Positions 41,779 to 63,743 of a stretch of 64,000 nt of DNA are shown one piece after another. Under the pieces are notes generated by a model. It saw only the letters and a program-made list of their open reading frames with translations, searched no databases and had not been told where the DNA came from. The stretch spans positions 320,001 through 384,000 of the forward strand of contig CBDEUK010000002.1 of NCBI GenBank assembly GCA_965243205.1. Reading direction: 5' to 3'. Every line of letters starts with the position of its first letter. Positions within the stretch are counted from its first letter, which is position 1. The position numbers and the translations under genes were made by a program. Source of the DNA: Gammaproteobacteria bacterium (lineage in GTDB: Bacteria > Pseudomonadota > Gammaproteobacteria > Eutrophobiales > Eutrophobiaceae).

Positions 41779-42162
41779 GGTTAATTTCTCAATTTTTATT
41801 AATTACTAATATTACAAATTATTCAATAAAACAATGTAAAACCTATATAAATCATAATTTTATAAAATAAACTTGATTTAAAATTTTAAATGTACTATCT
41901 TAAGAACCAGTCATTCATGACTGATATTTAACGAGTATGTGAAGTTTTTCCTCCAAGACTATAAAGACTTCATCAGCAAAACCTTAGGACATGGACGTCC
42001 AATTTTTTATAAAACTATAACGACCTCCTCTATCGACTCGTATCTAGGATTTCAATTCCAGTTAGAATCATTAAATTTCAGTAACTTTGTGTGCGATAGC
42101 AGCAATATTTTGTACAATCCGCGATTAACTCTTCGGATAAAAATTAATAATTTGGAATATTT

Positions 42163-43605: not shown

Positions 43606-43624
43606 TCTATACTATCAAAAAACC

Positions 43625-44761: not shown

Positions 44762-45029
44762 AAGTTCTCCTGATATAGCATTTTTATCGGCTGGTTCATG
44801 TATTACTTGATATTTTCATGTATTAATAATGTGTGCGATTAAAAAAATATATTTTATTTCAATGAGTTATTAAGTTATATTGAATTAATAGAAAACAATA
44901 CATATACAAAGAACACCAAGAAATCATCTTGCGCAACAGCGAAAGTTTTATTGCTATTAAGGTATATGCAAATATTGCCGATTTAATTTTCTCTACTATC
45001 TCATTTATCTCATTCAGGATGAGACACCA

Positions 45030-45782: not shown

Positions 45783-45844
45783 TGATTTAGGAAATATGAG
45801 AACTATCATGTATTTCATAAATCTGTAACAATAAAGGTTTATTT

Positions 45845-46891
45845 TTGTATATGTTAAAGGGAATAAAGGAATTAATAATGAATATGATTAGATATACAGC
45901 AACAATATTTTGCTGTTCTTTAGTTTTTTTACCAACTATGTGTTTGGCAAACTGGGGAGAAGATTGGGGGCAATTCCAATGGTTTGGTTCTACAACTTCG
46001 ACAACAATTGTTCCAACTATCAGTTTTGTTGGGTTAATAATGTTGTTTCTATTGATAATTCGATTTAATAATTCGATTCAAAAAAAATCTAAAGTTATTG
46101 CTAGCTTTGCAGTATGTTTAATACTAATTCCTATGGTTGCCGTCAGTGTTACCTTACCTCATGTTTTTGTAAATGGTGAGACTGCAGATGCAAATGAGGT
46201 AAATGATAATTTTAACACCCTATCAACAGCAATTGATAATATCCCAGCTGGTCCAGAAGGACCACAAGGACCTGCCGGTGCTCAAGGCCCTATTGGACCA
46301 ATGGGTTTGGTTGGTCCTCAAGGTGCCCAAGGGCCTCAAGGAGTCCCTGGTGAACAAGGTTTGCAAGGTCCACAAGGAATTCCAGGTTCTCAAGGACCTC
46401 AAGGTTTCCAAGGACCTCCTGGGTCTGGCCTAGGTGTAGGTGAAATATGTCCATATGGAGACGTTACTTTTTCTGAACCCATTACAGGTGAAATACCATT
46501 AGATACAATTGATTTATCTATAGCACCTACTTCATTTTGTCAGATAGGTATTAGTTCAAGTACAAATACCTGTATAGAAACACGATTTATAGGAACAGAT
46601 AGTAATGGTGTTGGTTTATGTTCGTGGGGACAAGTACCTGTTCCAGGTACTTATAAATCTTTTACTGCATATTCTTCTAAATCGTTTGAACTAAGTTATA
46701 GTAATAGTTTTGGAACAGGAACTGTAATGATTGGTGTTTTCAGGACATTTCCTGGAACATATGGGTTTACATTTTATGGGGCTTCATATGGCTATACATC
46801 ATCTATATTATCTCCTGTCATAGTTAATAGTGATGATGCTACTTTATATGCATCTGAAAAAATAGAAAAAATATTAGGCAAACATTTGTAA
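45845..46891 (+). CDS. Collagen-like surface protein with internal IPTL-CTERM-like segment
   Basis: About 20 Gly-X-Y triplets; [17 protein letters not shown]; [10 protein letters not shown]; start may be 45878-45884. Confidence 0.8.
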
Positions 46892-46907
46892 ATTATTAAT
46901 TATCAGA

Positions 46908-48845
46908 TTGAATAGAAAAATATTTCCTCATTTATTTGATCTGGTAATTCTCTTAGCCTGTGTTATATCTTTACTGGCTATAATATCTGCTTCATTTATG
47001 CCCCATTATGGTTTATGGGTGCAAAGTGAAATTGTTTTATTAATCTTTCATACAGCATCAGCGATTTGTGCAATCGGCTTAATTGGTTGTGTTTATAGTT
47101 TAGAGCACAACAGTAACAATATTAAATTAACTCTACCGGCAGTATTTGCATTAAGTATATTTATACTAAGTTTATTAAGCTTACCATTTAGAGAATTTCC
47201 AATATTACACTTATGGGGTTTGCCTGAACATGGAGAAGGTGCTCTTTTATATTTATCTGTTTTTATAATAATTATTGGTTTTTTTTATTCGAACCAAAAA
47301 GAATGGATGAGGATGTTTTTAGAAATTACGCTTACAGTATTAATCTTCTTCTTAGCATTTGTTACAACGTTTAATAATATTTCAATAGAAAAATTTGATA
47401 CTATATTATTCCCCCCATATTTTTTTAGAGACTACTTAGCTTTTTTTTCATTATTTGGAATATATGTTTCGTTAAATAACTTTAAAGAAAATAAAATTTT
47501 ATTTTACATGTTATTTTCTGCATCAATATATTTGTTAGTTATTAGTGAAAATTTAAGTGCACAGATAACAATTCCTATTGTAGCAATCATTTGTTTTTTA
47601 ACAAAAAAAAGCTTGAATTATGCAGCGCTTAGGCCACCTTTGCTCTATGGATTAGGTTTTTTTTTAATAATTTCTATTTTTTTATTTTCGTTTGTTTTTT
47701 CGAACGCTATTTCTGTAACCTCCAGTTTTGGATCAAGAATCCATTTGCATTTGATATGGTATGAAGCAATAACGAATAATATATTAAATTTTTTAGGTGG
47801 CTATGGTTTTGGAAATTATGAAGAATTATTAATCCTATATTCAAATCAAACCGGCATTGCAACATATTCATCAGGAGAATTACCTTTTTGGGATACATAT
47901 AGGCGTGTGGATTTTAGTTCGCATAATGCTTTTTTGGATATTTTTGGTTCGACAGGCATATTTGGTTTTTTTCTATACAGTATGTTCTTTATGAGCACGT
48001 TTCTTTTAAGACCAATCAAAGCAATCAATGTTTTTATGTGTGTTTCTGTAATTATTTTATCTTCAATGTGGTTTTTAATGCCCGGAGTAATGGCAGTATT
48101 TGCATATTGCCTAACGTTAAGAAATGACACAAATTATAATGTAATCAATTTATCTAAAAAAAGCCTTCTTTATCTATTTTTAAGTTCAGCAATTTGCATA
48201 GTTTCAGTTATATATTTATCAGTAAAGCCCGCTATAGAGATAAAAAACTATCAACAGAATAAAATATCAGACTTAAAAAAATGTCACTCAATATTTAAAG
48301 ATGAAAAATTTGGAGGTTATTACACAGCTAAATTATTAAGAAGTGCATTTAACCTCGAAGGAACGAATGTTGTTAAAAATTATGAGCAATATCAAGCTGA
48401 TAATTTTTATTGTTTATTTTTATCTTCTGAGACTCAGTTAAATCACTCGCCATCTTTAATGCTTTTAGTATCTAATCTTTCAGTTAGATCTGATCTGTTA
48501 ATTCATTCAGAAAATTACCCTGGTTGGAAAACATTGCAAAACAAAATCGCAACAAACTGGGATAAACGAATTATTCAATTAGTAGATATAGCTCCACAGA
48601 GGCATGATTTATTAATTCCATATTTAACATGGAAAATTTCTAAAAAAGATTTTAAGGAATCAATGAATGTTATTGAATATTCTTTAAAGAAAAGCCCTGA
48701 TAATGCTATAGGCCTATGGTTTAAAGGAGTCATTGGATTAGAAACAGGTTCGAATAAAAAAGAATCAATTAAATATCTTAAAAAAGCTCTTATTAATGGC
48801 GTAGAAAGATTTTTGCACATATCTAATGAACTAAAATTAAAATAA
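46908..48845 (+). CDS. O-antigen ligase/Wzy_C-like polytopic membrane protein with C-terminal TPR
   Basis: About 12 TM, GSRIHL..W, GYGFGNY, SHNAFLD..G..G. Confidence 0.7.
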   Translation: MNRKIFPHLFDLVILLACVISLLAIISASFMPHYGLWVQSEIVLLIFHTASAICAIGLIGCVYSLEHNSNNIKLTLPAVFALSIFILSLLSLPFREFPILHLWGLPEHGEGALLYLSVFIIIIGFFYSNQKEWMRMFLEITLTVLIFFLAFVTTFNNISIEKFDTILFPPYFFRDYLAFFSLFGIYVSLNNFKENKILFYMLFSASIYLLVISENLSAQITIPIVAIICFLTKKSLNYAALRPPLLYGLGFFLIISIFLFSFVFSNAISVTSSFGSRIHLHLIWYEAITNNILNFLGGYGFGNYEELLILYSNQTGIATYSSGELPFWDTYRRVDFSSHNAFLDIFGSTGIFGFFLYSMFFMSTFLLRPIKAINVFMCVSVIILSSMWFLMPGVMAVFAYCLTLRNDTNYNVINLSKKSLLYLFLSSAICIVSVIYLSVKPAIEIKNYQQNKISDLKKCHSIFKDEKFGGYYTAKLLRSAFNLEGTNVVKNYEQYQADNFYCLFLSSETQLNHSPSLMLLVSNLSVRSDLLIHSENYPGWKTLQNKIATNWDKRIIQLVDIAPQRHDLLIPYLTWKISKKDFKESMNVIEYSLKKSPDNAIGLWFKGVIGLETGSNKKESIKYLKKALINGVERFLHISNELKLK

Positions 48846-48865
48846 ATTCATCTCAATGAATAATA

Positions 48866-48882
48866 AATGGTGCTGGGCTGTA
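48866..48882. repeat. tRNA-3'-end-like att remnant, copy 1
   Basis: AATGGTGCTGGGCTGTA; 14/17 identical to 50582-50598. Confidence 0.4.
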
Positions 48883-49135
48883 CTAAAATACATATTATAT
48901 AATATAATCTATTAATATTATTGACATATTTAAATTTCAATAATAATTAATACGCCCAATTGAGTTAGTGTATTACATGTTAGTATTTTTAGCAGATCTA
49001 TGACTAAAAATGTGTCTTTTTTGAGTTTTCTTTTCAAGTATTCGAATAAAACTTGTCTGTCTACCGCTAATGCGGTCGACAGAATTCAAACGTTAAGTTT
49101 GTTGTAAATTAGAATATAAGCTGTAAATTTAAAGC

Positions 49136-49330
49136 ATGATTATCGAAAGGATAGTAGCAATTATATTTAGCTCAATTGGGATTTATCATCTGTTAAAAGA
49201 TCCCTCTGATGGGCTTTGGTGGCTCTGGACAATAGTGTGTTTTTTTAGCTTCTTATTTCCAAGTAACAATAATTCTAAGTCTCCTAATTTTGGGGTAGAA
49301 TTTAGTGATGATTCTGATGGTGGCGATTAA
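49136..49330 (+). CDS. Small membrane protein
   Basis: Two hydrophobic segments, acidic DDSDGGD tail. Confidence 0.5.
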   Translation: MIIERIVAIIFSSIGIYHLLKDPSDGLWWLWTIVCFFSFLFPSNNNSKSPNFGVEFSDDSDGGD

Positions 49331-49355
49331 ATCTTTTTCTTATGAATAAACCAAT

Positions 49356-49694
49356 ATGAACAAATTCATTGCTATCCTTTTTGCATGCTCTTGTTTTCTT
49401 ACATCTTATATGTCTGCCAACATTTTGGGCATAGGCATGTGGTTTTGGATCATTATTATTACAGGTGTCTTTGTAGCAGCAAGCCAGTTTCATAAATCAC
49501 TTATTACCCTTGGTTCAATTGCCGCAATTTTGCTTGGTGTAATATCTATACTAGCAATATTATTAGGTTTATTGGCTGCAACAATTGGAGGTTCATTCAG
49601 GCTTAATAACCAAGAGGCAATATTATTATTTTCGTTTTTTCTAATTGCTGTATTTGGTTTTACTTTAATTATAGCAAACAGGAATCAACGTTGA
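49356..49694 (+). CDS. Small 4-TM membrane protein
   Basis: 112 aa, almost entirely hydrophobic. Confidence 0.55.
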   Translation: MNKFIAILFACSCFLTSYMSANILGIGMWFWIIIITGVFVAASQFHKSLITLGSIAAILLGVISILAILLGLLAATIGGSFRLNNQEAILLFSFFLIAVFGFTLIIANRNQR

Positions 49695-49806
49695 ATATTA
49701 TCTTTAAAGATAATATCTCTACGCATAAGAAGTCATTTCTAACGGCCTCTAAAAGTAGAGATGGAATAAATAGTACCAAACTAAAAATAATGATGATGAT
49801 TAATCT

Positions 49807-50130
49807 ATGAAACCTAATACCTGGTTTTGGATGCCTATTGTTGTTGTAATATGTTCCATAATTATATTATCTATTAATAAGTCCCCTGGTTTAGATGGGG
49901 CTGCTATGTCATTAGTATTAGTTTTCTGGTTTTTACCAACCATTATTTTTCTAATTTTTAAGATTGTTTCAAATCTAAAAGAAATAAGCTTTTCAAAAAC
50001 ACAAAAAATATTAATATTTACTATTTGGATAGTGCCTTCGATACCATTAAGTATTATGTCTTTAATGGGGATAATGATTCTTTCGGAAGTAAGCTTTGGT
50101 CTATTGGTTCGAAGTCTAGGATTTCATTAA
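49807..50130 (+). CDS. Small 3-TM membrane protein
   Basis: 107 aa hydrophobic ORF. Confidence 0.5.
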   Translation: MKPNTWFWMPIVVVICSIIILSINKSPGLDGAAMSLVLVFWFLPTIIFLIFKIVSNLKEISFSKTQKILIFTIWIVPSIPLSIMSLMGIMILSEVSFGLLVRSLGFH

Positions 50131-50581: not shown

Positions 50582-50679
50582 AATGGTGCCGGGCCGCATC
50601 CAGAATTTTAGATTAAATCATTGATATTAAATATTTTTAGGTATATTTATGTTAAGTAATACCCCAAATCATACCCCAT
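50582..50679. repeat. tRNA-3'-end-like att remnant, copy 2, with arm-type repeats
   Basis: AATGGTGCCGGGCCGCA (reverse complement ends CCCGGCACCA); ATACCCCA twice at 50659 and 50671. Confidence 0.45.
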
Positions 50680-50717
50680 TTAAATTTATGTGTTTCAGTA
50701 ACTACTATAAAGCTTAA

Positions 50718-51029
50718 TTACGATTTTATTTCATATCCTAAAGGAAACCAAACCCCTCTTTTCGTGACATCACCCATATTATTCAGTACGTGGTTATTGT
50801 CTAAAGTGGACACATCTATATCTTCTATAATATATGCTATATGTGGTATGCAGGTATCCTCAAAAACGATCTCATTAATTAGATTAATAGCATCCGCATA
50901 ACTATAAGCACTTATACCACAGCCATGCTGCGTACCTATTGGCATACTATTAGATTCTAAATTTTTAAAATCAAACCAGTATCTTTTTAGATGAGGAGGT
51001 GGCTTTGTATTAAATACAGAGTTCAGCAT
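50718..51029 (-). CDS. Conserved hypothetical, candidate second/orphan immunity protein
   Basis: RYWF...GCGISAY...EDIDVSTLD..HV..NMG...RGVWFP; overlaps end of DUF4265 gene. Confidence 0.6.
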   Translation of the reverse strand: MLNSVFNTKPPPHLKRYWFDFKNLESNSMPIGTQHGCGISAYSYADAINLINEIVFEDTCIPHIAYIIEDIDVSTLDNNHVLNNMGDVTKRGVWFPLGYEIKS

Positions 51030-51450
51030 AACTTATTTTGCCTAATGATTCTTCTGCATCTAAATAAGCTGTAATTTCATTATATTCATTGCTACTATCA
51101 ACTGAAACAGCCAGCATATTAAAACCATCAAACTCGCCATATTCACAATAACAATCTTTTTCTTTTAAATATTCATAAATTTTATTTTTACATTCATCAT
51201 GAATAAATATAATTGAAATAGATTTATTGCCACTTGGAGTGATTACATTTTCAAAAATATAATTATGATCATGTTCATCCTTGCTACAGGAAATAATATC
51301 TCCAACCGCAACACACTCAGCAAAAAAAGGTGTATTGTCTAATTCAATTTTACCATCATCTCGTAAACGGGCATTTAATGTCTCGATAGCTATAGGAGGA
51401 AAACCATCTTCTATAATTTCTAGCTCAAAATTTACTTTAATGTTACCCAT
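51010..51450 (-). CDS. DUF4265-like acidic protein, putative cognate immunity
   Basis: ETLNA...LDNTPFFA..VAVGDII...SGN; directly downstream of the HNH toxin. Confidence 0.7.
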   Translation of the reverse strand: MGNIKVNFELEIIEDGFPPIAIETLNARLRDDGKIELDNTPFFAECVAVGDIISCSKDEHDHNYIFENVITPSGNKSISIIFIHDECKNKIYEYLKEKDCYCEYGEFDGFNMLAVSVDSSNEYNEITAYLDAEESLGKISYAELCI

Positions 51451-51468
51451 TAACTATAATCTCTTAGC

Positions 51469-52389
51469 TTAGTTATTACTTTTTTTGTTATTACAACTAG
51501 CACATTTAATATCAATATTTCTTTGATCTTTTACAGTCGCGCCATCACCATTTTTTGAACGCGCGATTTTATGATCGCCTTGACCTTCACGAGGATCTAC
51601 TTTACTACCTTTAGTACGCCTTGTGGTAGGTGTAGTTTTAACACCACAAGTTTCACATAATACATCGCCATTATTTTTTGCCGCATTTCTTTTTTTAGCT
51701 TCTTTTATAGCTCCTCTAGTATGTTTTTTACCTGCTCTTGGCCCATTCGCAGCACCTTTAATTGCTTTTTTTATAATTGCTGTAGTTGCACCTTTACCAG
51801 GATTAATATTACTTACAGTATCAATTCCTTCAGCAATTCTGACTCCAGATTCAATAAAAACTCTATTTCCAAAATTACCTATTTCTATAGCTTGTTCTAT
51901 AGACATACCTCTTCGATTCATATGAATCGAAGTGCCAAGAGCTCCATCAGGGTCAATGAATTTATAAGGGTTGTTATATGCATACGCATAACGATTAAAT
52001 AATTGAATATTTATATCAATCCCATCAAGAGCACTGATAGGATCCATGCTCATGAAGCGCCCTATTTCAGGGTTATAGTAACGCGCTCCGTAGTAACTGA
52101 GCTCCAGATCATCATCGTATGGTTTGCCGGTATAGTATAAATCGTTATCTTCTGTGGCGGCCGCGGTGTTTTCTTTACGAGAACCGTATGGTCGATAACT
52201 TTCTGTCCACACTAAATTTCCATCGTTATCTGATGCGCCAATAACTGAACCTAATGCATCCGTGTGATAATACGTAATCGTTACATCAGCTTGTGCTGTT
52301 ACTACAAAGAACGATAAGAAACCTATTAAGGCTTTACTGAGGTATCGCTTGGTCATTGTGTTAATGGAATTAAGTAAACTCTTCATCAT
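51469..52389 (-). CDS. Signal-peptide Rhs-associated core domain plus C-terminal HNH nuclease toxin
   Basis: AAGGAAG RBS before ATG 52389; AQA cleavage then YYHTDALGS, YRPYG, YYGARYYNPEIGRFMSMDP, YAYAYNNPYKFIDPDG; CETC...DHKIARSKNG...CASCNNKKS. Confidence 0.88.
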   Translation of the reverse strand: MMKSLLNSINTMTKRYLSKALIGFLSFFVVTAQADVTITYYHTDALGSVIGASDNDGNLVWTESYRPYGSRKENTAAATEDNDLYYTGKPYDDDLELSYYGARYYNPEIGRFMSMDPISALDGIDINIQLFNRYAYAYNNPYKFIDPDGALGTSIHMNRRGMSIEQAIEIGNFGNRVFIESGVRIAEGIDTVSNINPGKGATTAIIKKAIKGAANGPRAGKKHTRGAIKEAKKRNAAKNNGDVLCETCGVKTTPTTRRTKGSKVDPREGQGDHKIARSKNGDGATVKDQRNIDIKCASCNNKKSNN

Positions 52390-52412
52390 TTGGCTTCCTT
52401 TAGTCATAAGGC

Positions 52413-55400
52413 TCATGGCACCATCCCCTCAAACGTTGTCTGGTTCCACACGGTCCCATCATTAAACTCTATCCTATCTATCGCGTGCGGCTTATCGCTG
52501 CCATCGAAACTGTAATAGTATTCAATTTTTATCGAATCGCCGTTGGTGTGATGTAAGTACATATGGTCGATGTCACGAGTGAAACTGATATCACTTGGAT
52601 TGATGCCGACACCAAAGCGGAAGATATCCACAGTGTGGTATTGCCATTCTGTATTGCTCACAACGTCTGAGCCCCAACCCACATCAAAGTGATAAATGTC
52701 ATTACCATCACCACCACTTAATGTATCGTTCCCAGTGTTACCTATCACGACATCATCGCCGTTGTAAGCATAGATGGTGTCATTGCCGGCAAGGCCATCC
52801 AAGGTATCGGCGTGGGATGAGCCGGCTATCATCGCATCATCACCGGTTGTCGTAACGGCCATGAAGCCTTCGAACGTCGCTTTATCCCACACCGTGCTAT
52901 CAGCAAACTCAATGCGGTCAATGGCGTGCGGTTCATCCGTTCCATCCAAATTAAAATGGTAGCGAACTTCGATTGAATCACCGTTGGTATGCGCGATATA
53001 TAAATGCTCTTCATCACGTGTAAAGGTGATGTCGCTTGGATTAATACCGGTACCAAAGCGTATGATGTCGGTTGTGTGATATTGCCACTCGGTATTTTGG
53101 ATAATGTCCGTGCCCCAACCGGTATCAAAGTGATAAGTATCATTGCCATCACCACCGGCTAAGGTATCGTTACCATCACCGCCGATGAGTGTGTCATCAC
53201 CATTGTAAGCTTCAATCGTGTCATTGCCGGCAAGGCCATTCAAGGTATCGGCGTGAGAGGTTCCGGCGATCATCGTATCATCACCCGTTGTGGCAACAGC
53301 CATAAAGTCTTCAAACGTCGCTTTATCCCAGACCGTACCATCGTCAAACTCAATGACATCAATGGCGTGTGGCTCATCCGTTCCATCCAAATTAAAATGA
53401 TACTGAACTTCAATCGAATCACCGTTGGTGTGAGTGATGTGTAAATGCTCTTCATCACGTGTGATGGTAATGTCATTTGGATTAATGCCCGTACTAAAAC
53501 GGATGGTGTCCACAGTATCGTAGTGCCACTCGGTATTCTGAATAATGTCCGTGCCCCAACCGCTATCAAACACGTACAAATCATTGCCATAACTTCCTAT
53601 CAAGGTGTCATCACCCGGACCACCGTTTAAGAGATCATCACCATCATAGCCATTGAGTACATCGTTACCGGCCAAACCATTTAAGGTATCAGAGTGTGAC
53701 CCGCCTTCTAAGGTATCATGACCAATCGTTGCAATAGCCAACATGCCTTCAAACGTACTCTTATCCCATACCGTGCCATCGTCAAACTCTATGATATGGA
53801 TCGCATACGGTTCATCCCCCGTATCAACAATAAAATGATAAGACACCCGAATGCTATCGCCATTACTGTGCGTCAGGTATAGATGCTCATCATCACGGCT
53901 CACCGTAATGTCGCTTGGACTAATGCCACTGCCAAATCGAATGGTCTCCACATTGTTAACGCTCCACTCTTCATTGTTCACAATGTCAGACCCCCAACCG
54001 ATTTCAAACAAGTACACATCATTCCCAGCACCTGCGTTCAACGTATCATTGCCCGCACCGCCGTTCACCACATCATCACCCGCTGTACCGTCCAAAGTAT
54101 CATTGCCACTGGTACCTACCACGGTGCCAGAGCCGGTGCTTGCATTTGTAACCGTCACCGTAATTGTTGCATCGCTGCTTAAACCACCACTGTCCGTCGC
54201 ACTCGCCGTAATGGTATGCGTACCAATACTCAACACCGTATTGTTAAAGTTACCCGTACCTATCGCACCATCGATACTGGAAGTCCAATTAAGCGATGGG
54301 CCAAGATTGCCATCCTCAACATCGTTGGCAGTGCCAATGAAGATCATACTCGAACCTTGAACCACACTGGCCCCGGAGCTTGGGATAGTGATGTTCACTG
54401 TGGGTGCTGTATTCGTTACATCATTTACATCGGTGACGATAACCCGGACCAATTGCGAGGTTAATTCAACCCCATCGCTTGCTTCTAACAATACATTATA
54501 TTCGTTGTCCCCTTCCGTATCCGTTGGCGTTTCAAAGTCAGGGGCTGTGGCAAAACTTAAATTGCCACTCGCATCGATGCTAAAAGCATCATGGTCAGTA
54601 GAGAATTCTTCATGCACTGTAGAATCACTGATACGAAAACTCACTGCAGCCGATTCTGGATCCGTGGCCGCCAATGCCATCACGCTCATGGTGTTCTCTG
54701 GAATGCTGACGGCACTTGCACTGCTGATCACCGGCCCATCGTTCACACCATGAATGGTGATGGTAACTGATGAGTTGGAAGTTAACCCTTCGTCATCCGA
54801 CATCGTGTAACCAACCACCACTTCGGCGGTTTGTCCGGCAAGTAAGGCATCAAAATCAGTGCCTGGATCGAATTTTAGATAGCGACCACCCTCGATGGAA
54901 ACCGTGCCCTGACCATTACCATTCACATGAGTGTGGGCATCCAACGAGAACGTCTCCACCGTATCCTCTGCATTGGGATCTGTATCATTGGCCAACACAT
55001 CAATGTACAACGGCACTTCCTCTCCAGGACGGTAGATGCGCATGGCAACGCCGGAACGATCATCATCCCCTGTCGCAGGATCCCAACTGTCCCATAGGAA
55101 TGCAACGTCACCGTTTTCAAGTTGTTTCATATACGGTCGTTCTTGATAACTTGTACCATGTATATTGATTTTCTCTATCTCGCCAATCAAGTCACCATTA
55201 TTATCGTATCTGACAGCCGATATCTCAGAACCCGCAGCGGCCGCCATGAATCCTCCACTGGATAAAGCAAGCAGTGCAGGATCACGACCGTTACTTATGA
55301 CAAAAGGGGTATCAATATTATTGTAGGTTGACCCATCAAGGAGTTGTGCTTCAATTCTTCCGAATTGTTCGCCATGTGCAGGATCTAGATTTATATGATT

Positions 55401-58400
55401 CCAGACTACGATATAGTTATCGTTCGATAACTTTTGAATCTTAGGCTTTGGACTAGTTCGAAGCGCATGATGGTTGCTTGTGATAACGTGTCTGCCGGTT
55501 AAAATCGGCGTACCATCAGCCTCATAACGTTTTAATATTATTTCGGTATCACTGCCGATGCTATAAACATTGGTATGCGCTGGGTAAAGGACACCAAAGC
55601 CTCCTTCAGGAAGAGCAATCAGTTCAGGAGCATAATGATCAGCATTAGGATCTTCACTGACGAGAAAAGCATCCGTTAAAGCATTGCCGCTCTGATCAAA
55701 CACCCTGGCCATCACATTGAATACGGCAAATTCACCACTTGGAACGGCTCTAAACACACTCCAAGCTGCAACGATGTTGCCATTGTTTAATTGAGTGTAT
55801 TTAATAGATAGTAAGATGAGACCATAAAGATCTTGCGGTTGAAGTTGATAAACCGAGATATCGTTGATTTCATCTTTAGCCTCATTATATACCTTGGCTC
55901 TGCGATCATTACCCAAAGTATACGAAGAGATGTAACCTCCATTTGCTAATTTTTGAAGTCGATCATCGGTGTACTCAAGACCATCTTTTGTACCATCAAG
56001 ATTAAAGTTTTGAGCAAAGGCCGTAGAGCCATCCTCATTAAGCCATCTCACCTTAAACTGTTGGTTCGGCAAATCGTGAATAGAATTACTCCATTGAATG
56101 CCTGCCGTTGTGGTATTGACCAGTTGCTCAGTTGGAAGACGCGCATTGATGGTATCTGCTACCGCTACTGGATTTAGATTAGCTAAGTTAACTGTTAGAT
56201 TAATAGAGTCATTTCGTATAATACCTAGGCTGTCCGTTACTGAAGCAGTAATTTCATGTTCACCAACAGTTAATGTGTTTATATTAATCGTCGTGCCAGA
56301 ACCTATTGGACCATCAATATTTGATTGCCATTGAATATTAGTAATTGGTGATTGGGTATATGTATCAAATGACGTTGCTGTGAAAGTAATTACGTTGTCA
56401 CTAGTAAATGTCGCGTTATTCACAGGACTGGTGATAGATACCGTTGTAGGTGAACTCGGAGGTCCTCCTCTTCTTATAAAATTATAATTACTGCCAATCA
56501 TGACAGAGTTCAGTTGACTCTCATAAAACCGAAAGGCCGCCACTTCACCTTCAAAATTGGTAACATTTGCTGAACCGATATTGATATCGCCATTAACTTG
56601 TCCAAGACCAGTATCATTGCTATCGGCCCAGTCGTTTAGTGAAGTTGAGAAATCAGAAGTAATAAATTGGCCATTAATATACAAAGCTATGAAACCTCCC
56701 CCGCTACCCTCATCTCCTACATTTTTTGTATATGTTCCTACTACTTGAATAAATTCGTTTGTTACCTCAGCAGAGCTACCCAATATAGAGGATAAGTCCC
56801 CAGTTAAAGCGAGTGTTGTACTACTGTTTTTTACAATGAATTGTATATCATCGTGTTCTCCATCATTATCTTCATCTGTCATAATAATTGCGGTACCATC
56901 ATTTGTAGATCCTGTTTCAAAAATAACATCCGTGTCTAAGATGTCACTAGGCTTGAACCAAACCTCAAATGTGGCACTTTCGTCTGTCGGATCACCCTGA
57001 ATACCTTGAAAATCAATCGTTGTTGCTCCATTCGAGCCATTAAACTCCAAGGATTTAGTAATACCGATAAGAGATGTAATAGGTGAGGAATTAATTAAAC
57101 CTCCATTAATAAAATCATACCCTGTCAAGTTTGTTAAATTATTCCATATCCCATCTGAAGGTTCTGGTTCAACAGAGCTTTCATAATTCAAGGTAAAGGA
57201 AGCATCTAATGAACCTAAGTCAACTTCTTTTATAGTAATGGCTTTTGCAGCTGTTCGTTGTATACCTAAACTATCAACAACCGATGCAGTAATAAGATGG
57301 TTATTGACCGACAATGAATTTGTATTTATCGAGGGACCAGTACCAATCACACCATCAAAATTAGATGACCACTCAATTAACGAACTGATGTTTCCATCAT
57401 AGTAATCAATCGCACTTGCTGCAAAGTTAATGTTTGTACCAAATTCTTCTGAAATGAAGCCAATGGTAGCAGGCTCAGTAATATCAATTATTGATTTACA
57501 TCGAGTATTAGTGATAGTGACATTTGGAATTAATGTTTTTAAAATTTCAACATGTTGACAGACATACTCGTTAGATACGTTTGTACTATGTGTACTTAGC
57601 CATAAATTTGATAAATTTGTTGGGATGCGCTGATGAAGGCTAACTACATCTGCTAGTGGATTACCTCCAACTATTAGAGACACCAAATTATTTAAATTTG
57701 AAACATTAATATCAGTAAGTAAATTATTTTGAATCCATATAATTCCTAAATTATTTAGCCCGGAAAAATCTACGATGGCTAATTCATTATTATCAAGATT
57801 TAAACTACTGAGAGAAGGCAAATTACTAAACGATACACTGGATATTCGATTATTATTAGCATTTAATATCGAGAGTGATTGAATATTACTGATACTTAAT
57901 GTGGATAGATTATTAAAGTCTAAATATAGTCTTTCTAATGAGTTCAATGATTGTAATGTTATTGGATTTATACTTTCCAAACTATTAGCTCTAATATTTA
58001 AAATCTTTAAATTAGTTAAATTTGAAAGGCCAATAATATCGTCGATTGAAACAAATGAATTATAACTTAAATTCAATACATTCAAGTTAGGAAGCCCAGA
58101 TAAATTTATTGTAGAAAGAGGATTTTGACGAAAAGAAAAATCTGGAGTCAATATTAGTTCTTTTAAATTTGGCAAATCATTAATTGTTACTTGATTAAGA
58201 TTTTTTGAGTCTATACTTATTATCTCCAAGGCTTTTAAAGCTTCTAAACCAATTAAATTTGTAACATTAATATTCCCTCGACAGGTTAAGTATTTTACAT
58301 CTGATATATATTCAAATGAATTATTTGTTCTAATTGTGGAATCAAAACATTCTGACAAACCTGAGTTTGTAGGGAGTTGGAAATCAGTTATTAGTGTATC

Positions 58401-61400
58401 AGGAAAGATTTCAGTAATATTAACATTCGCAGTTAATTCATATATACCGTCAGAAATTGTATAACTAAATGAGTCCGAAGATATATTGCCAGGATCAGTA
58501 TAAGAAACAGAATTATCAGTGAATGTTATAGAACCACCATTAACACCTTGAGTGACTGATATTATCTTTAGTCCTCGTCCGTCGACATCCGTGTCATTTG
58601 ATAGCACATCAATTAGGTTAGATTTTCCTTCAAAAGCTATAACACTATCATCTTGTACTATAGGTGATGATAAATCACATTCGATTGGAGTAATGTCATC
58701 ACGTTTAGCCAACAGCAATGAACCAATATGAATATAATTTGTATTTTTACAGTTAGTCTCATCACGTTCATATCTTAATTGGCCGAATTTACTATAGATA
58801 TAATGTTTAGTGTAATTTTCTCGAAATGATGAAGTTTCACTTTCAACGGTTCGTTGATTATTTCCATCGTATATAAATAATTTATTGTATAAGATTTGAT
58901 TAAAACTATTAGTATTAGTAGCAGCTGTTAAATTTGAACCATCATCATAAATATATTCTTTTCTAGATTGTTCCGTCCTAAATCCATCTAGTTCAGTTTT
59001 TAACCAATCATCTTTTGAATCTTTTATAATATTTCCATAATTATCATATGAATAGATTGAACGAATTACTGATGAGTTTCCATTCCATCGATAAAATTCA
59101 TCAAGTTTGCCAGAAGTATCATAAACATAATCCGTATTTTGATGTTGAAAACCATTGCTATGGTTATTGGTTCTTGCTGTAATATCTCCTTTGTAATTAT
59201 AATGGAGTTTATTATTATCATAAGTTGCACAATTAACATTAAAAGTAGGTTGCGCTATAACAAGCCTATCCATGCCGTCATAACACATGCTTCCCATATG
59301 AATATTAGTGCTACCCAAATCGGTTATGTTTTCAACATTGCCACTCTCGTCATAACTATAACCAATATTAATTAAGTTCCCTGATAAATTATCAACATTA
59401 ATTGAACCTGTGAATAATCTAGGCGTAAGTGTGGTCGTTGTGATTTGTCCATTAACTGATTCATATCGATGGATATTACCATTGGCATGATAGGTGATGT
59501 TTTCAGCATAAATCTCAGAAGGAGTGGTATCGTTAATGGCTTGAGAAGGACGGCCTAAATTATCAGGTAAATAATTTATATCAACACCATTAGGATAAAT
59601 GATGTGTGATAATGTATCTAACGAATCGTATTGATAAGTCAATCGATAGGTTTCAAGTCCACTATCGGTTGTTAGTCTTAACTCTTCATAATTTAAATTA
59701 TCATTTTTATCGTAATCGTATTCCCAATAAGTTGTACCTTTGGTTATGGATTTGACGTTGCTATTTTTGTCATAAACATAATCTAAATCAGTTGTGCTGT
59801 TTGGATAATTGATAAAGTCTAATCGATTTAAATCATCGTAAACGTAAATGGTTTGAGGAGAACTGCCAACAGTTGAAGAAGTAACGTTGCCAACTAAATC
59901 ATGTCCATAAATTGTAGTTCCAGTTTCAGGGTTTATTTCATTATTTAAAAAATATTTACTATTATATTGATAAGTTCTTTCAACTATATTCGTAAATGAT
60001 GTGCATTGATCTTCTCCTTCGGCTGATGCATCTACTGCTTGCCTAATCTTAGTGATTTGATTAAGTACATTGTACTGAATTTCAGTACAGATATTTTCAG
60101 GAGAAGCTATATAACGAGGCACTCTGTCTTTATTAGGATGTCCAAAAGAACGATAGAATGTAACAGTTTCAAACCCTCTTTCATTCGTTTCGATAACTTC
60201 TTTTCCAGCTTTATAATCATATGTTCTAAAACTGGCATCAGGATGAGTAATTTTTGTGGTTCTGTTGATTGTATCGTATTCGTAAGTAGTACCATCAGTC
60301 GTTGAATTTGGATAGGACTCAAAGACTTTTCTACCATATTCATCGTAATCAATAATGGTTTCGATGACATTAACATTAGAAGCATTAATTGGGCTCAAGT
60401 CTTCTCTGGTCTTTTTAATTTCTCGCCCAAACCCATCAAACAAAACGGTTTCTTTATAATTACCTCGAGTTAAAATTTTACTGGTGCTAGTCCAATTAAT
60501 TGAAACAGCTGCACTACCGACTTTTGGAAAAGTAATTCCAGTTAAACGATTACGGCCATCATACGAAAAATCCTTCTGATGTCCCTCAGCATAACCTCTT
60601 CCATCTCGTATCCAATCGACGGTTCCTTTTGTATTGACACTTCTTTGTATCGTGACTGATTCAGGATGAATTTCAAGTTGTGCAATTCCTCTTGAATAAT
60701 TACTTTTAGTAGTTGTATGTGAGTTTGCATCTTTAATCGTATGAACATTACCACTCGTATCATAAGTGTAGCTTGTCTTAACGCCGTTAACAGTTTCAGA
60801 TTGAAGACGGCCTGTATTAAAAAAATCTCTATCGATTGTTGATGTTTCACCACTCAATGTGGTTGTTTCATCTTTAGCTAAACCAATGATCCAATGATTA
60901 TCAGGATCAGTAAAATATGAAATCGTCGTTACTTTGTCATCAGTACTATCAAGTCCATCTGTTTCTATAATTTCTGTTGGATTACCAAACTCATCATGTC
61001 CATTGTAGTAGGTAAAATGAGCGCCAGTATTTCCATCATAGGTAATGTCTGTATCCAATAATACAGGCGCATAACTATTCGTATCGACCTCACCTTCATT
61101 ACCATGGAAATAATTTTCACGTGAAATAATTCGCTTGCCCCATCTATTGGCTCTTCGTTCTAATAAATCATTATTTGAGGAATATATTTTTTTAGTAATC
61201 AGTAAACCATTCGCCCAGACATTATTTAGTCCAGTCAAATTTGCACCTTGATGAACAAACTCTTCACGAGAACCGTCAGGATGATTTATGACAGTTTTAT
61301 CGGCATCTTGCACTACGCCTGTATCTCCTAGGGTTGGTACTGAGGCTGGTTGAAAATCGTATGTCCATGTTGCAGTATCTATTTGACGACCAGAAATCTT

Positions 61401-62510
61401 TTTTGTTAGAACCGATGTTGTTAAATTGTTACTTGGATTAGAGTTTTGTGCGCCAACATCAAATGCAACATGTTGGTATGTGTAATCGACTACACCACCA
61501 TAGGGATATGTAATTTTACTTAATGAATATTTTCCTGCTAGTGGATGTGTCGGTGGATAATATTGATATTGCCATGATTGACCTTCTGGTAACTGTACAC
61601 TGTCCAAATTAAAACGACATAATCTAATTTCAGTTTCATCACCTGTATCCTCATCAGTAAAGACATCATTTGCAACAGACAAGCCATAACTATAATTCCA
61701 TGAACGTCCACCTGACGTAATACTCTGTAAGACATTACAACCACTGCCTGGAGCAGGCGCGTAATTAAAAATGACTTGTCTGCCACCGCTGGCATCAATT
61801 CGTTTCATATATTGATAACCTAGAGTAGGATGTTGTTCATAGGTAATATCAATAGAGTTGCCGTATACATCTTCTATTCTAGATGTATACCATGAATGTT
61901 CTTGTTGATCAGGAGTAACTGATACTGAAGACAAAACATTCATCCAATATCGTGTGCCATTAGGAGACGTAACGATCATTCCTTGCCCAGCATTACAACT
62001 CGCTTTCCAATTACTTTTAGTGATTAATACCTCTGCTCCAGTGCCTGTATCGATTTCATTAACATTTTCTAAAAATAATAATTCTCTTGCACCATCAGGA
62101 TGTTCTAAGGAAGGGTTATCTTTTGTCGTTACACTCCATAGAGATTGATTACACATCCTATCGACAAACTGACTTGGCACAACAATCCGCCCATAATGCA
62201 TAGACCAACCAACACCGTATATTTGGTTATAGCCAGGTTTGCGACCATTATCGTCTTGATGGCTGGTATAAAATCGATTGATAGTAATATCCATACCACC
62301 ATTACCGGGAATTACTAAATCTTGATGCCTTATTTGCAATGTTCCTGAAAACGGATCGATTGTTTCGTTTAAATCAGAACTTAGTTCTTTAAAAGGATGT
62401 AATCCTGGTTCTGAATAATAATCTCTAATTTCTTCAGCATGGCTAGATAGATTAAAAACTAATAGCGAATAAATGATCGTAATAAATAAAGACTTAATCG
62501 ATTTCATCAT
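52413..62510 (-). CDS. Giant (3365 aa) signal-peptide Rhs/YD-repeat protein fused to Ig-like, LRR, PKD-like, LamG-like, cadherin-like and RTX Ca-binding domains
   Basis: Signal peptide, ETIDPFSG, GVGWS, many YD repeats to about 58700, LxxLxLxxN repeats, three W(S/Q/T)S..DG.IG.G PKD-like units, APDFE cadherin, GGxGxDxL repeats. Confidence 0.88.
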   Translation of the reverse strand: MMKSIKSLFITIIYSLLVFNLSSHAEEIRDYYSEPGLHPFKELSSDLNETIDPFSGTLQIRHQDLVIPGNGGMDITINRFYTSHQDDNGRKPGYNQIYGVGWSMHYGRIVVPSQFVDRMCNQSLWSVTTKDNPSLEHPDGARELLFLENVNEIDTGTGAEVLITKSNWKASCNAGQGMIVTSPNGTRYWMNVLSSVSVTPDQQEHSWYTSRIEDVYGNSIDITYEQHPTLGYQYMKRIDASGGRQVIFNYAPAPGSGCNVLQSITSGGRSWNYSYGLSVANDVFTDEDTGDETEIRLCRFNLDSVQLPEGQSWQYQYYPPTHPLAGKYSLSKITYPYGGVVDYTYQHVAFDVGAQNSNPSNNLTTSVLTKKISGRQIDTATWTYDFQPASVPTLGDTGVVQDADKTVINHPDGSREEFVHQGANLTGLNNVWANGLLITKKIYSSNNDLLERRANRWGKRIISRENYFHGNEGEVDTNSYAPVLLDTDITYDGNTGAHFTYYNGHDEFGNPTEIIETDGLDSTDDKVTTISYFTDPDNHWIIGLAKDETTTLSGETSTIDRDFFNTGRLQSETVNGVKTSYTYDTSGNVHTIKDANSHTTTKSNYSRGIAQLEIHPESVTIQRSVNTKGTVDWIRDGRGYAEGHQKDFSYDGRNRLTGITFPKVGSAAVSINWTSTSKILTRGNYKETVLFDGFGREIKKTREDLSPINASNVNVIETIIDYDEYGRKVFESYPNSTTDGTTYEYDTINRTTKITHPDASFRTYDYKAGKEVIETNERGFETVTFYRSFGHPNKDRVPRYIASPENICTEIQYNVLNQITKIRQAVDASAEGEDQCTSFTNIVERTYQYNSKYFLNNEINPETGTTIYGHDLVGNVTSSTVGSSPQTIYVYDDLNRLDFINYPNSTTDLDYVYDKNSNVKSITKGTTYWEYDYDKNDNLNYEELRLTTDSGLETYRLTYQYDSLDTLSHIIYPNGVDINYLPDNLGRPSQAINDTTPSEIYAENITYHANGNIHRYESVNGQITTTTLTPRLFTGSINVDNLSGNLINIGYSYDESGNVENITDLGSTNIHMGSMCYDGMDRLVIAQPTFNVNCATYDNNKLHYNYKGDITARTNNHSNGFQHQNTDYVYDTSGKLDEFYRWNGNSSVIRSIYSYDNYGNIIKDSKDDWLKTELDGFRTEQSRKEYIYDDGSNLTAATNTNSFNQILYNKLFIYDGNNQRTVESETSSFRENYTKHYIYSKFGQLRYERDETNCKNTNYIHIGSLLLAKRDDITPIECDLSSPIVQDDSVIAFEGKSNLIDVLSNDTDVDGRGLKIISVTQGVNGGSITFTDNSVSYTDPGNISSDSFSYTISDGIYELTANVNITEIFPDTLITDFQLPTNSGLSECFDSTIRTNNSFEYISDVKYLTCRGNINVTNLIGLEALKALEIISIDSKNLNQVTINDLPNLKELILTPDFSFRQNPLSTINLSGLPNLNVLNLSYNSFVSIDDIIGLSNLTNLKILNIRANSLESINPITLQSLNSLERLYLDFNNLSTLSISNIQSLSILNANNNRISSVSFSNLPSLSSLNLDNNELAIVDFSGLNNLGIIWIQNNLLTDINVSNLNNLVSLIVGGNPLADVVSLHQRIPTNLSNLWLSTHSTNVSNEYVCQHVEILKTLIPNVTITNTRCKSIIDITEPATIGFISEEFGTNINFAASAIDYYDGNISSLIEWSSNFDGVIGTGPSINTNSLSVNNHLITASVVDSLGIQRTAAKAITIKEVDLGSLDASFTLNYESSVEPEPSDGIWNNLTNLTGYDFINGGLINSSPITSLIGITKSLEFNGSNGATTIDFQGIQGDPTDESATFEVWFKPSDILDTDVIFETGSTNDGTAIIMTDEDNDGEHDDIQFIVKNSSTTLALTGDLSSILGSSAEVTNEFIQVVGTYTKNVGDEGSGGGFIALYINGQFITSDFSTSLNDWADSNDTGLGQVNGDINIGSANVTNFEGEVAAFRFYESQLNSVMIGSNYNFIRRGGPPSSPTTVSITSPVNNATFTSDNVITFTATSFDTYTQSPITNIQWQSNIDGPIGSGTTININTLTVGEHEITASVTDSLGIIRNDSINLTVNLANLNPVAVADTINARLPTEQLVNTTTAGIQWSNSIHDLPNQQFKVRWLNEDGSTAFAQNFNLDGTKDGLEYTDDRLQKLANGGYISSYTLGNDRRAKVYNEAKDEINDISVYQLQPQDLYGLILLSIKYTQLNNGNIVAAWSVFRAVPSGEFAVFNVMARVFDQSGNALTDAFLVSEDPNADHYAPELIALPEGGFGVLYPAHTNVYSIGSDTEIILKRYEADGTPILTGRHVITSNHHALRTSPKPKIQKLSNDNYIVVWNHINLDPAHGEQFGRIEAQLLDGSTYNNIDTPFVISNGRDPALLALSSGGFMAAAAGSEISAVRYDNNGDLIGEIEKINIHGTSYQERPYMKQLENGDVAFLWDSWDPATGDDDRSGVAMRIYRPGEEVPLYIDVLANDTDPNAEDTVETFSLDAHTHVNGNGQGTVSIEGGRYLKFDPGTDFDALLAGQTAEVVVGYTMSDDEGLTSNSSVTITIHGVNDGPVISSASAVSIPENTMSVMALAATDPESAAVSFRISDSTVHEEFSTDHDAFSIDASGNLSFATAPDFETPTDTEGDNEYNVLLEASDGVELTSQLVRVIVTDVNDVTNTAPTVNITIPSSGASVVQGSSMIFIGTANDVEDGNLGPSLNWTSSIDGAIGTGNFNNTVLSIGTHTITASATDSGGLSSDATITVTVTNASTGSGTVVGTSGNDTLDGTAGDDVVNGGAGNDTLNAGAGNDVYLFEIGWGSDIVNNEEWSVNNVETIRFGSGISPSDITVSRDDEHLYLTHSNGDSIRVSYHFIVDTGDEPYAIHIIEFDDGTVWDKSTFEGMLAIATIGHDTLEGGSHSDTLNGLAGNDVLNGYDGDDLLNGGPGDDTLIGSYGNDLYVFDSGWGTDIIQNTEWHYDTVDTIRFSTGINPNDITITRDEEHLHITHTNGDSIEVQYHFNLDGTDEPHAIDVIEFDDGTVWDKATFEDFMAVATTGDDTMIAGTSHADTLNGLAGNDTIEAYNGDDTLIGGDGNDTLAGGDGNDTYHFDTGWGTDIIQNTEWQYHTTDIIRFGTGINPSDITFTRDEEHLYIAHTNGDSIEVRYHFNLDGTDEPHAIDRIEFADSTVWDKATFEGFMAVTTTGDDAMIAGSSHADTLDGLAGNDTIYAYNGDDVVIGNTGNDTLSGGDGNDIYHFDVGWGSDVVSNTEWQYHTVDIFRFGVGINPSDISFTRDIDHMYLHHTNGDSIKIEYYYSFDGSDKPHAIDRIEFNDGTVWNQTTFEGMVP
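52420..54120 (-). repeat. Four tandem ~440-bp RTX/HCBP-related repeat units
   Basis: Equivalent positions at about 52560, 53001, 53442, 53880; each has GWGxD, IRFG.GI.PSD, IEF.DGTVW. Confidence 0.85.
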
Positions 62511-62783
62511 GAAATATTCCAGATAGTAATTTTTGGTAGACGTATAAAAAATTTGGATATGAATCGTTGTGGATTACGCACGATCCAAGATGAGAAGTTA
62601 ACAATCAAGCATTTACAAAAATGTAAAAAAGAATAATTAACTATTAAATAGATTTGGTAATACGACGAGAATACTAACCTTGTATAAACATAACCAGCAT
62701 ATCTCGTGTCTTTCCCCAAAGACATAAGAGTTTCCTAAAAAGCTATTTTCTTTTTAACAATATCAAAAAATTAAATTTAATTA

Positions 62784-62801
62784 ATCACCCATATGGGTGA
62801 T
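62784..62801. promoter_or_regulatory. 18-bp perfect palindrome upstream of the Rhs operon
   Basis: ATCACCCATATGGGTGAT in an otherwise very AT-rich spacer. Confidence 0.5.
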
Positions 62802-63188: not shown

Positions 63189-63743
63189 TTACATAACTAT
63201 ATTGTTTCTACTTGAGAATGCCTCACAAGCTTTATCTATTTCTATAAGTGTTTTATTCTCTCCATCTTCAAGCCAAGGAACAATTTCTTTCTTAAATGCG
63301 TTTTCTGCTTGTCTAGTATCCGTTGAATACGCTTTAGTATCCCAATATTCTTTTCCAAAAATACGTACTGCAGCATACATGATTGCTGCTTTTAACCAAC
63401 TTGTCTCATCTGATCGCATCCCTTTGTAAAACACTATATCGACAGCTAATCTTGGATCATCTGAACCATTATCATGTTGATTAATGTATAACGAATCATG
63501 TAGCGCAGCTGATCTTCTATAATTTCCTACATAAGGACTACCTATTAATGTCCATGCTATTTTAGGGATGCTTGCACCATCAATTATATCATCTGGTATA
63601 GCCGGCCACTTATATTTATTAAGATCAATAAATTCAAAATGTTCTTTTAATCTCATTGATTGATCATCACCTTTATCAATCAACCATTCTGCAAAAACAT
63701 TTCTAGTAAATTTTCCATACTCAGACATAGATAGTTCCTTCAA
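63189..63743 (-). CDS. DUF1353 domain protein
   Basis: DGASIP...IGSP...YRRSAALHD.LY...MYAAVR.FG; real start probably MSEYGK after AAGGA. Confidence 0.8.
   Translation of the reverse strand: MKELSMSEYGKFTRNVFAEWLIDKGDDQSMRLKEHFEFIDLNKYKWPAIPDDIIDGASIPKIAWTLIGSPYVGNYRRSAALHDSLYINQHDNGSDDPRLAVDIVFYKGMRSDETSWLKAAIMYAAVRIFGKEYWDTKAYSTDTRQAENAFKKEIVPWLEDGENKTLIEIDKACEAFSSRNNIVM

Follow-up and report, generated by a model that had tools for sequence, protein, structure and literature searches.

The window analyzed here, a stretch of 64,000 nucleotides from a gammaproteobacterial genome (GenBank assembly GCA_965243205.1, contig CBDEUK010000002.1, positions 320,001–384,000), contains two neighboring genes on the minus strand that divide between them the parts of an Rhs toxin. 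The first, at 52413..62510, encodes a protein of 3365 amino acids (the giant protein) in which the open reading frame (ORF) list, the translation and searches of Pfam and NCBIfam reveal a signal peptide, an N-terminal plug, a YD-repeat shell without an Rhs core, and an adhesin/RTX arm. The second, at 51469..52416, encodes a protein of 315 amino acids (the small protein) that consists of its own signal peptide, the Rhs core plug, a linker and an HNH nuclease. The giant protein has no core and the next gene has one, and core and shell are thus not contiguous in one polypeptide in the window. The pair probably constitutes a two-gene, Sec-exported polymorphic toxin system of the Rhs type that operates independently of a type VI secretion system (T6SS). 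This split architecture is conserved and is neither a one-off nor an artefact; it represents a real, widespread and apparently undescribed variant of Rhs polymorphic toxins.

Domain architecture of the two proteins

The giant protein starts with a Sec-type signal peptide (residues 1–25; 62436..62510, minus strand) that, as read from the translation, comprises a basic n-region, about 15 hydrophobic residues and a predicted cleavage site after S-H-A, immediately before EE; the mature N-terminus is EEIRDYYSEPG. The leader is followed directly, at a distance of only 26 residues, by a DUF6531-like N-terminal plug at residues 49–107 (62190..62366, minus strand; PF20148, E = 9e-4), and no PAAR or VgrG-binding region was found at this end of the protein. 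On a fragment of the protein, PF20148 matched with E = 6e-5 and 23.7 bits, slightly below its cut-off of 24.1. The plug holds the motif D52-P53-F-S-G-T-L, which resembles the N-terminal cleavage motif of Photorhabdus Rhs1 described in the accessible part of PMC8636562.

The YD-repeat shell occupies residues 26–1271 (58698..62435, minus strand), as delimited by tblastn to the shells of more than 40 loci and by a shell profile, A2. PF05593 matches the giant protein itself weakly (E = 5.5e-5); A2 matches 15 solved chains of Rhs, teneurin-like and teneurin proteins at E-values from 6e-40 to 8e-16, a comparison made at the level of sequence only. The last shell strand is NYIHIGSLLLAKRD, and residue 1271 is encoded at 58698–58700, in agreement with the original prediction, made from the sequence of the window alone, that the YD repeats stop at about 58,700. 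Pfam and NCBIfam detect no Rhs core in the giant protein, and the SpvB family is absent from its Pfam matches at E ≤ 0.01.

Beyond the shell, a C-terminal arm of about 2090 amino acids (residues 1272–3365; 52416..58697, minus strand) was dissected by scanning fragments against Pfam and NCBIfam. It contains a Big_9/cadherin domain at 1282–1366, leucine-rich repeats at about 1413–1595, a Laminin_G_3 domain at about 1842–2001, weak immunoglobulin (Ig)-like matches, a stretch of 390 residues that belongs to no family, and Big_9 and Cadherin_4 domains at 2497–2653. The arm ends in RTX nonapeptide blocks and four HCBP_related domains (residues 2769–3365; 52416..54206, minus strand; PF00353, E = 1.3e-32; PF06594, E = 9.2e-39). 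The original prediction of about 2100 residues of adhesin-type domains in place of a core is thus borne out by adhesin, lectin and RTX domains.

The small protein begins with a leader of 43 residues (52288..52416, minus strand) with a predicted cleavage site after A-Q-A, and its mature form starts with DVTIT-YYHTDALGS. Internal ATG codons lie at 52387–52389, preceded by AAGGAAG, and at 52354–52356, the second ATG pair being nine codons in. The Rhs core, which combines the C-terminal plug with the aspartyl-protease domain, spans residues 44–158 (51943..52287, minus strand) and ends in DPDG; TIGR03696 (Rhs_assc_core) matches residues 74–158 with E = 2.1e-22 and has the motif PYKFIDPDG at its end, and PF03527 gives a match to residues 47–79 (E = 1.5e-5) that does not reach the cut-off of the family. 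Each of the two DP motifs has an aspartate, D125 and D155 respectively, that never varies among the 25 small proteins of alignment A1. In Rhs1, the aspartate of the second DP motif is catalytic, according to the accessible part of PMC8636562.

A linker of about 90 residues (159–249; 51670..51942, minus strand), placed by inference and matching no family, leads from the predicted cleavage site to the toxin. The predicted toxin is an HNH nuclease domain at residues ~250–315 (51472..51669, minus strand), recognized by PF01844 in a scan restricted to residues 200–315 (E = 4.7e-5; 23.9 bits, above the cut-off of 21.4); PF01844 and PF14279 are also among the precomputed annotations of small-protein relatives. 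The next gene therefore supplies, as foreseen, the missing core behind its own A-Q-A signal and ends in an HNH nuclease.

In alignment A1, many small proteins (for example P0012, P0014, P0038 and P0043) have a strongly hydrophobic, helix-like stretch just past DPDG, and four others, including that of the window, have in common at this position a motif resembling R-G-x-[ST]-[IL]-x-[EQ]-A. Either element could be a pre-toxin or translocation element.

The small gene is followed by a gene for a DUF4265 protein of 146 amino acids (51010..51450, minus strand; PF14085, E = 6.7e-22) that has no leader. The order HNH nuclease, then DUF4265 recurs in Pseudomonas sp. UFMG81 (L068), there after a fused Rhs protein, and another locus (L010) has a DUF4265-like ORF 3' of its small gene. 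From this recurring pairing, the DUF4265 protein is likely the cognate immunity protein, and its lack of a leader fits cytoplasmic immunity against a nuclease delivered from outside. A further ORF of 103 codons (50718..51029, minus strand) overlaps the end of the DUF4265 gene; it matches no family at E ≤ 0.01 and has no relative in the fetched loci, and its membership in the toxin system is uncertain. Of the immunity-like genes originally proposed to follow the toxin, the DUF4265 gene thus holds up through its recurring pairing, and nothing supports the 103-codon ORF.

The two main genes overlap directly: the DNA reads ATGA where the TGA of the giant gene meets the first ATG of the small gene, an overlap that we read as translational coupling and count in favor of a two-gene system. 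Programmed frameshifting that would fuse the giant and small proteins was considered and rejected because the leader and the 2090-residue arm would then separate the shell from the plug.

The split falls within the linker between shell and plug

The position of the split was defined by comparison with 17 fused relatives. In these proteins, recovered from public genomes, a linker of 5–14 amino acids separates the last shell strand, Y-[IV]-Y-L-G-x-x-L-[VI]-A, from Y-x-H-x-D-x-L-G-S, the start of the C-terminal plug. The shell of the giant protein stops right after its last strand, and the mature small protein begins five residues before Y-x-H. The window split thus lies inside that linker, so that nothing is missing or duplicated. 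The small-protein profile covers the whole C-terminal plug of the solved cocoons, with matches to residues 2046–2197 of TcdB2-TccC3 (E = 1e-21, the best match in the PDB), residues 1180–1312 of RhsA (7q97), and YenC2, RHS2, Tse5, Tse15, teneurin-like proteins and teneurins.

The split architecture recurs in many genera

A search with the small protein returned 183 proteins of 173–552 amino acids at E ≤ 0.001. Of 27 relatives that were fetched, 24 were aligned with the query to give A1; P0007 (a fragment of a fused form with the same HNH toxin type), P0008 (with an extra domain) and P0078 (a shorter copy of P0072) were left out. All 24 have a hydrophobic leader that ends 2–5 residues before T-Y-x-H-x-D, a conserved core that extends to N-N-P-Y-K-F-x-D-P-D-G, and unrelated toxins at the C-terminus. 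P0008, which has 381 amino acids and an HNH toxin of the same type, contains some 110 additional residues between leader and core, possibly an Ig/fibronectin type III-like domain; a plug-toxin protein can therefore carry an N-terminal extension.

Scanning one genome per species yielded 79 loci with 99 core motifs; short frames account for 54 of these, and the other 45 sit in long frames or at the ends of contigs. Among the 69 cores with a recognizable Y-x-H-x-D, 37 belong to short frames that have a hydrophobic leader and nine to short frames that lack one; 17 are fused, and six are cut by contig ends. In 16 of the 79 loci, the ORF directly upstream of a small leader-core gene encodes a core-less shell. 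The shells at these 16 loci end in the same strand and are followed by tails that vary widely, from three residues in Pseudomonas syringae pv. cilantro (L012) through 119–133 in Shewanella and 270–575 in several others to 1341–1626 in three loci, including one in a Candidatus Thiodiazotropha bin. Clear leaders are present in 10 of 14 shell ORFs examined, and 8 of 10 scanned tails contain domains of the binding type (Big_3_5, β-propellers, CARDB, DUF11 and ChitinaseA_N).

The shell search gave 443 matches of 706–2249 amino acids, of which the best 120 were classified. The shell end is reached without a core in 94 of these 120: 65 extend for a further 108–1089 core-less residues and 29 stop 2–20 residues on; six have a core motif and the remaining 20 are partial. 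A hydrophobic N-terminus is found in 99 of the same 120, so the signal peptide that had been claimed for the giant protein, evident as a Sec-like leader in its translation, has counterparts throughout the family. In most of the first 40 shell relatives (P0125–P0164), the leader is immediately followed, as in the giant protein, by EEIRDYY-x-EPG-[LI], a segment much better conserved than the remaining shell (30–44% identity). The only annotations that members of the family have received so far are 'RHS repeat' and 'hypothetical' protein.

Family shells, defined by E ≤ 1e-100, were searched for in 400 genomes sampled evenly from the class. Thirteen genomes (~3%, our own included), all of different genera, contain one. 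The 12 other genomes hold 13 shell matches, of which five are split, with a leader-bearing small gene directly downstream, four are fused (one with a truncated core), one is core-less with remnants of a core-toxin upstream, and three lie at contig ends; half of the informative loci (5/10) are therefore split. Eleven genomes of the sample, again counting our own, have strong small-frame matches that start in the leader region. Eight of the eleven hold a family shell at E ≤ 1e-100, compared with 13/400 overall, and the other three have weaker shell matches, one adjacent to the small frame, another consisting of an N-terminal fragment at the end of a contig, and the third divergent. Three more genomes have weak small-frame matches, and one of these, G204, has an adjacent, more diverged shell. 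The survey for the same pair in other genomes that had been suggested as a check thus turned up the pair both among the 79 loci and in half of the informative loci of the even sample.

Cassettes with their own leaders are found in arrays. In a genome of the same genus, G006, a homologue of the giant protein with a 45–55% identical shell and a different arm has five small genes on its 3' side; each of these encodes a leader of its own, a near-identical core and a different toxin, and has a small ORF after it. Other arrays occur in L006 (five cassettes), L017 (four), L027, L013 and L033; every cassette of the arrays in G006, L006 and L017 has its own leader and an immunity-like ORF. These arrays, with a separate start for each cassette, are what the suggested exchangeable toxin cartridges would look like, and the high variability of the arms of core-less shells accords with the idea of independently evolving targeting arms.

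Secretion context and the RTX-containing arm

No match to TssC, PAAR, VgrG or Hcp was found in the whole source genome, which is 100% complete, and the reported lack of T6SS genes in the window accordingly extends to the genome. The genome encodes the type II secretin GspD, as well as a type I HlyD gene that adjoins a second large RTX protein (C2:796831-801396 and 804270-805583). On the other replicon (C1:59626-66298) there is also a TcB/TcC-like pair, in which an 887-codon ORF with a leader and an SpvB-like start is followed, after an overlap of 14 nt, by a 1340-residue Rhs protein with its own hydrophobic N-terminus and a core at about residue 983; phage-like ORFs lie just downstream. The source genome therefore also holds a two-chain cocoon of a known kind.

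Residues 2761–3365 of the giant protein are 28–30% identical to the RTX protein beside HlyD, and the arm of another family member (L122, G382:C71) also ends in an HCBP/RTX-related segment. These resemblances would suit an explanation in which the giant protein is mainly an RTX adhesin secreted by a type I secretion system (T1SS), the N-terminal shell is a module for retention or capping, and an unrelated neighboring toxin is encoded by the small gene. Substrates of T1SSs are not known to have an N-terminal Sec leader, whereas the giant protein has a classical one. Moreover, most arms in the family are free of RTX repeats, the arm of the giant homologue in G006 gave no RTX match, neither T1SS genes nor other secretion genes flank the locus, and the split point coincides exactly with the plug boundary. 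We regard this explanation as quite improbable.

Assembly and surroundings of the locus

The ORFs of the giant and small proteins are uninterrupted over 3365 and 315 codons, respectively, and the source genome was assembled into two contigs with a completeness score of 100%. In two sequencing runs, single contigs cover 50600–62800 with zero differences from the window, and in two further runs contigs bridge the junction between the giant and small genes. All four runs represent one sample, probably the source, and their agreement is hence not independent of the assembly. An assembly chimera at the junctions, raised at the outset as a possible explanation, is extremely improbable in view of these contigs, of the two-contig genome and of the occurrence of the same architecture in many independent genomes. 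At position 57439, a contig of depth 4 from run X1 alone has a gap of one base, probably a low-coverage assembly error; the other three runs match the window.

Sequence words of the region 50700–53700 are nearly missing from runs X5–X10, which carry the same species label and come from other samples; this is no proof of absence, and the locus may be strain-specific. No RNA dataset was listed as containing the stretch. A family scan of the flanks (38762–50130 and 63189–63743) found no secretion, chaperone or mobile-element families relevant to the system. An ORF of 72 codons (62507..62725) that overlaps the start of the giant gene was rejected as a gene, as it is of low complexity, lies in an AT-rich leader region and matches no family. 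At 45845–48845 on the plus strand are genes for a collagen triple-helix repeat protein of 348 amino acids (E = 6.5e-9) and a membrane protein of 645 amino acids with a weak O-antigen-ligase (Wzy_C) match.

A model for assembly in trans

The two proteins complement each other exactly, their leaders and catalytic residues are conserved, synteny is tight, and shells and small genes co-occur in genomes; this evidence leads us to the following model. The first gene would provide the container and the targeting function: a signal peptide, the N-terminal plug and the entire YD shell, with a chain that would exit the wall where the C-terminal plug normally begins and would continue into an arm that varies across the family and in the window consists of cadherin/Ig, leucine-rich repeat, lectin and RTX modules. 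The second gene would provide a cartridge, with a signal peptide predicted to be cut a few residues before the first plug strand, followed by the core, the linker and the HNH nuclease, against which the DUF4265 protein would confer immunity in the cytoplasm. Both chains would enter the periplasm unfolded via Sec. The cartridge would then dock where the shell is open, its N-terminal strands would be added to the shell sheet, its plug would seal the cocoon with the toxin inside, and autocleavage after DPDG would release the toxin within the shell. The loaded complex could be displayed or released, a type II secretion system being present in the genome, and the arm would bind a target cell to which the nuclease would be delivered.

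Homology and co-occurrence are the basis on which we suggest that the plug assembles into the shell in trans; the binding, the enclosure, the cleavage, the export route and the target are likewise what we infer. Where several cartridges are present, as in the sister species G006, one shell could be loaded with alternative toxins with no need for recombination. We propose tentatively that an open shell assembled in the periplasm and equipped with a receptor-binding arm may accept any of several Sec-exported plug-toxin cartridges and be closed by them in trans.

Several observations weigh against this model. It presumes that the core cleaves outside a fused cocoon, and it leaves unexplained how a giant protein of ~370 kDa with RTX repeats would cross the outer membrane after Sec export. 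Loci of the Stenotrophomonas type (L027 and G409) have their cartridges upstream of the shell and not downstream. Split forms are not united in the core tree, which forces at least three changes: 27 of 38 leader-bearing cores fall, with one other row, into a single group of 28 rows with a Shimodaira–Hasegawa-like approximate likelihood ratio (SH-aLRT) value of only 86, and the remaining ones are scattered among fused forms, so that either the split arose more than once or 106 columns are too few.

A further group of such observations concerns small genes apart from shells. No shell lies within 10 kb of the small-gene arrays L004, L016, L017 and L018, which are surrounded by housekeeping genes. 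In the genome of L017 the shell profile has no match, and in the genomes of L004 and L016 it has only weak YD matches; all three are metagenome bins that may be incomplete. The genomes of L018 and L011 do contain full shells at other sites. Two genomes of the even sample, G290 (94% complete) and G301 (58%), have weak small-frame matches and no shell at E ≤ 1e-20. These cases, as well as the separate start codon and leader of every cassette, which make an upstream gene unnecessary for expression, would be expected if the small proteins were autonomous Sec-exported pro-toxins in which the core acts as a self-cleaving pro-domain or handle. The shell-adhesin would then be a surface protein in its own right that might, like teneurins, have ceased to act as a toxin, and the adjacency of the genes would be a relic of a fused Rhs ancestor.

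Autonomous pro-toxins would not account for the tight linkage of the gene pair, whose members overlap in the window, nor for the enrichment of family shells in genomes with strong small-gene matches, in which even the three exceptions have weaker or fragmentary shells and G204, with a weaker small-gene match, has an adjacent diverged one. Where a shell is lacking, the genome is a metagenome bin or is incomplete. The mature start of the small proteins, 2–5 residues before the first plug strand in 24 of 24 relatives, fits a docking edge, and a permanently open shell has no known precedent. We therefore consider autonomous pro-toxins unlikely.

The giant homologue in G006 contains two frame changes, in a draft genome that is 89% complete; they lie near 46300 and 51100 (C27:45332-67025; L100 and L101) and are either real or draft errors. 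Together with truncated cores in G183-C36 and fragments in G409, they could suggest that a fusion or insertion severed the core of a decaying Rhs gene and left a non-functional orphan. Both ORFs of the window are intact, however, and leaders, catalytic aspartates and the split point have been kept across dozens of genera. Orphan modules lack a trafficking signal, according to the accessible text of PMC4436062, whereas the cassettes described here have one. Decay is thus very unlikely, and assembly of a two-gene toxin in trans remains our preferred interpretation of the locus.

Comparison with known toxin systems

Canonical Rhs effectors with solved cocoons include RhsA of P. protegens (7q97), Rhs1/Tre23 of P. 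laumondii (7pq5), Tse5 of P. aeruginosa (8cp6), Tse15 of A. baumannii (8uxt) and a further Rhs-family protein (8h8a). With these the system of the window shares the YD shell (A2 matches them at E-values from 6e-40 to 1e-32), the C-terminal plug with two DP motifs, a polymorphic toxin and an immunity gene after it. In the canonical effectors, however, shell, plug and toxin form one polypeptide, whereas here plug and toxin are encoded by a separate gene with a Sec leader. The canonical N-terminus is a T6SS trafficking domain (PAAR, VgrG or Eag binding), in place of which the giant protein has only a leader and a plug; its targeting-type domains are instead at the C-terminus of the shell, in a genome without T6SS genes.

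In Tc toxins, the split is located in the middle of the shell, with SpvB, a β-propeller and one half of the shell in TcB, and the other half, the plug and the toxin in TcC; both proteins are produced in the cytoplasm, and TcA is their docking partner. The BC subcomplex that they form (TcdB2-TccC3, 6h6e; YenB-YenC2, 4igl) is the one known cocoon of two separately encoded chains, and it likewise encloses a toxin that is cut off by the core aspartyl protease, a cleavage that in our system is predicted from sequence. The system of the window differs in that one chain carries the entire shell and the other only the plug and toxin, Sec leaders are present on both, and no SpvB domain was found in the giant protein.

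The tandem cassettes of core, variable toxin and immunity gene after a shell gene, with a core shared among cassettes, recall orphan rhs-CT/immunity modules. Here, by contrast, each cassette has a start codon, a leader and a complete plug, and the upstream gene has no core with which to recombine. That orphan modules have no trafficking signals, as the original prediction had noted, is also stated for them in the accessible portion of a review (PMC4436062).

Bacillus subtilis WapA is a Sec-dependent YD-shell toxin. Like WapA and the teneurin-like proteins (PMC13018210, accessible part), the system described here combines export by a signal peptide with adhesion domains, a YD shell, a toxin that would be enclosed in it, and an immunity gene downstream. 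Those toxins are single polypeptides with adhesion domains N-terminal to the shell, whereas the present system has two genes and a C-terminal arm; the accessible part of PMC13018210 makes no mention of a two-gene form among bacterial teneurin-like proteins. Rhs proteins are listed among polymorphic toxins exported by Sec and type II secretion in Table 1 of Zhang et al. 2012 (PMC3482391, accessible part). The Sec-dependent Rhs category and, in Tc toxins, two-chain cocoons are thus already known. A functional analogy, with no relation in sequence or fold, can also be drawn to AB5 toxins. Their toxic and binding subunits are exported separately by Sec, assemble in the periplasm and then leave by type II secretion.

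We found no description of a split between shell and plug in the open full-text literature, including the accessible parts of PMC3482391, PMC13018210, PMC8636562, PMC4612132, PMC4436062 and PMC11461821, with subscription journals and supplements outside the scope of the search; the statement that no characterized example was known is in line with this result. What is apparently new is the separately exported plug-toxin protein, the binding arm at the C-terminus of the shell, and cassettes that have their own leaders.

Implications

In the current view, a cocoon folds around a toxin that is part of its own chain or, in Tc toxins, around the toxin of one of two cytoplasmic half-shells. If the proposed model is correct, the two-gene toxins would be a natural experiment on cargo loading by cocoons, and a separate plug-toxin protein would make loading testable by mixing in vitro and by swaps of plug and cargo. 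The model would further imply that the targeting function can be moved to the C-terminus of the shell and that Rhs-type toxins work in Gram-negative bacteria without a T6SS. Toxin delivery would then be combinatorial and would need neither a T6SS nor the recombination on which orphan modules depend, and toxins would diversify through independently expressed cartridges and not through recombination with silent orphans.

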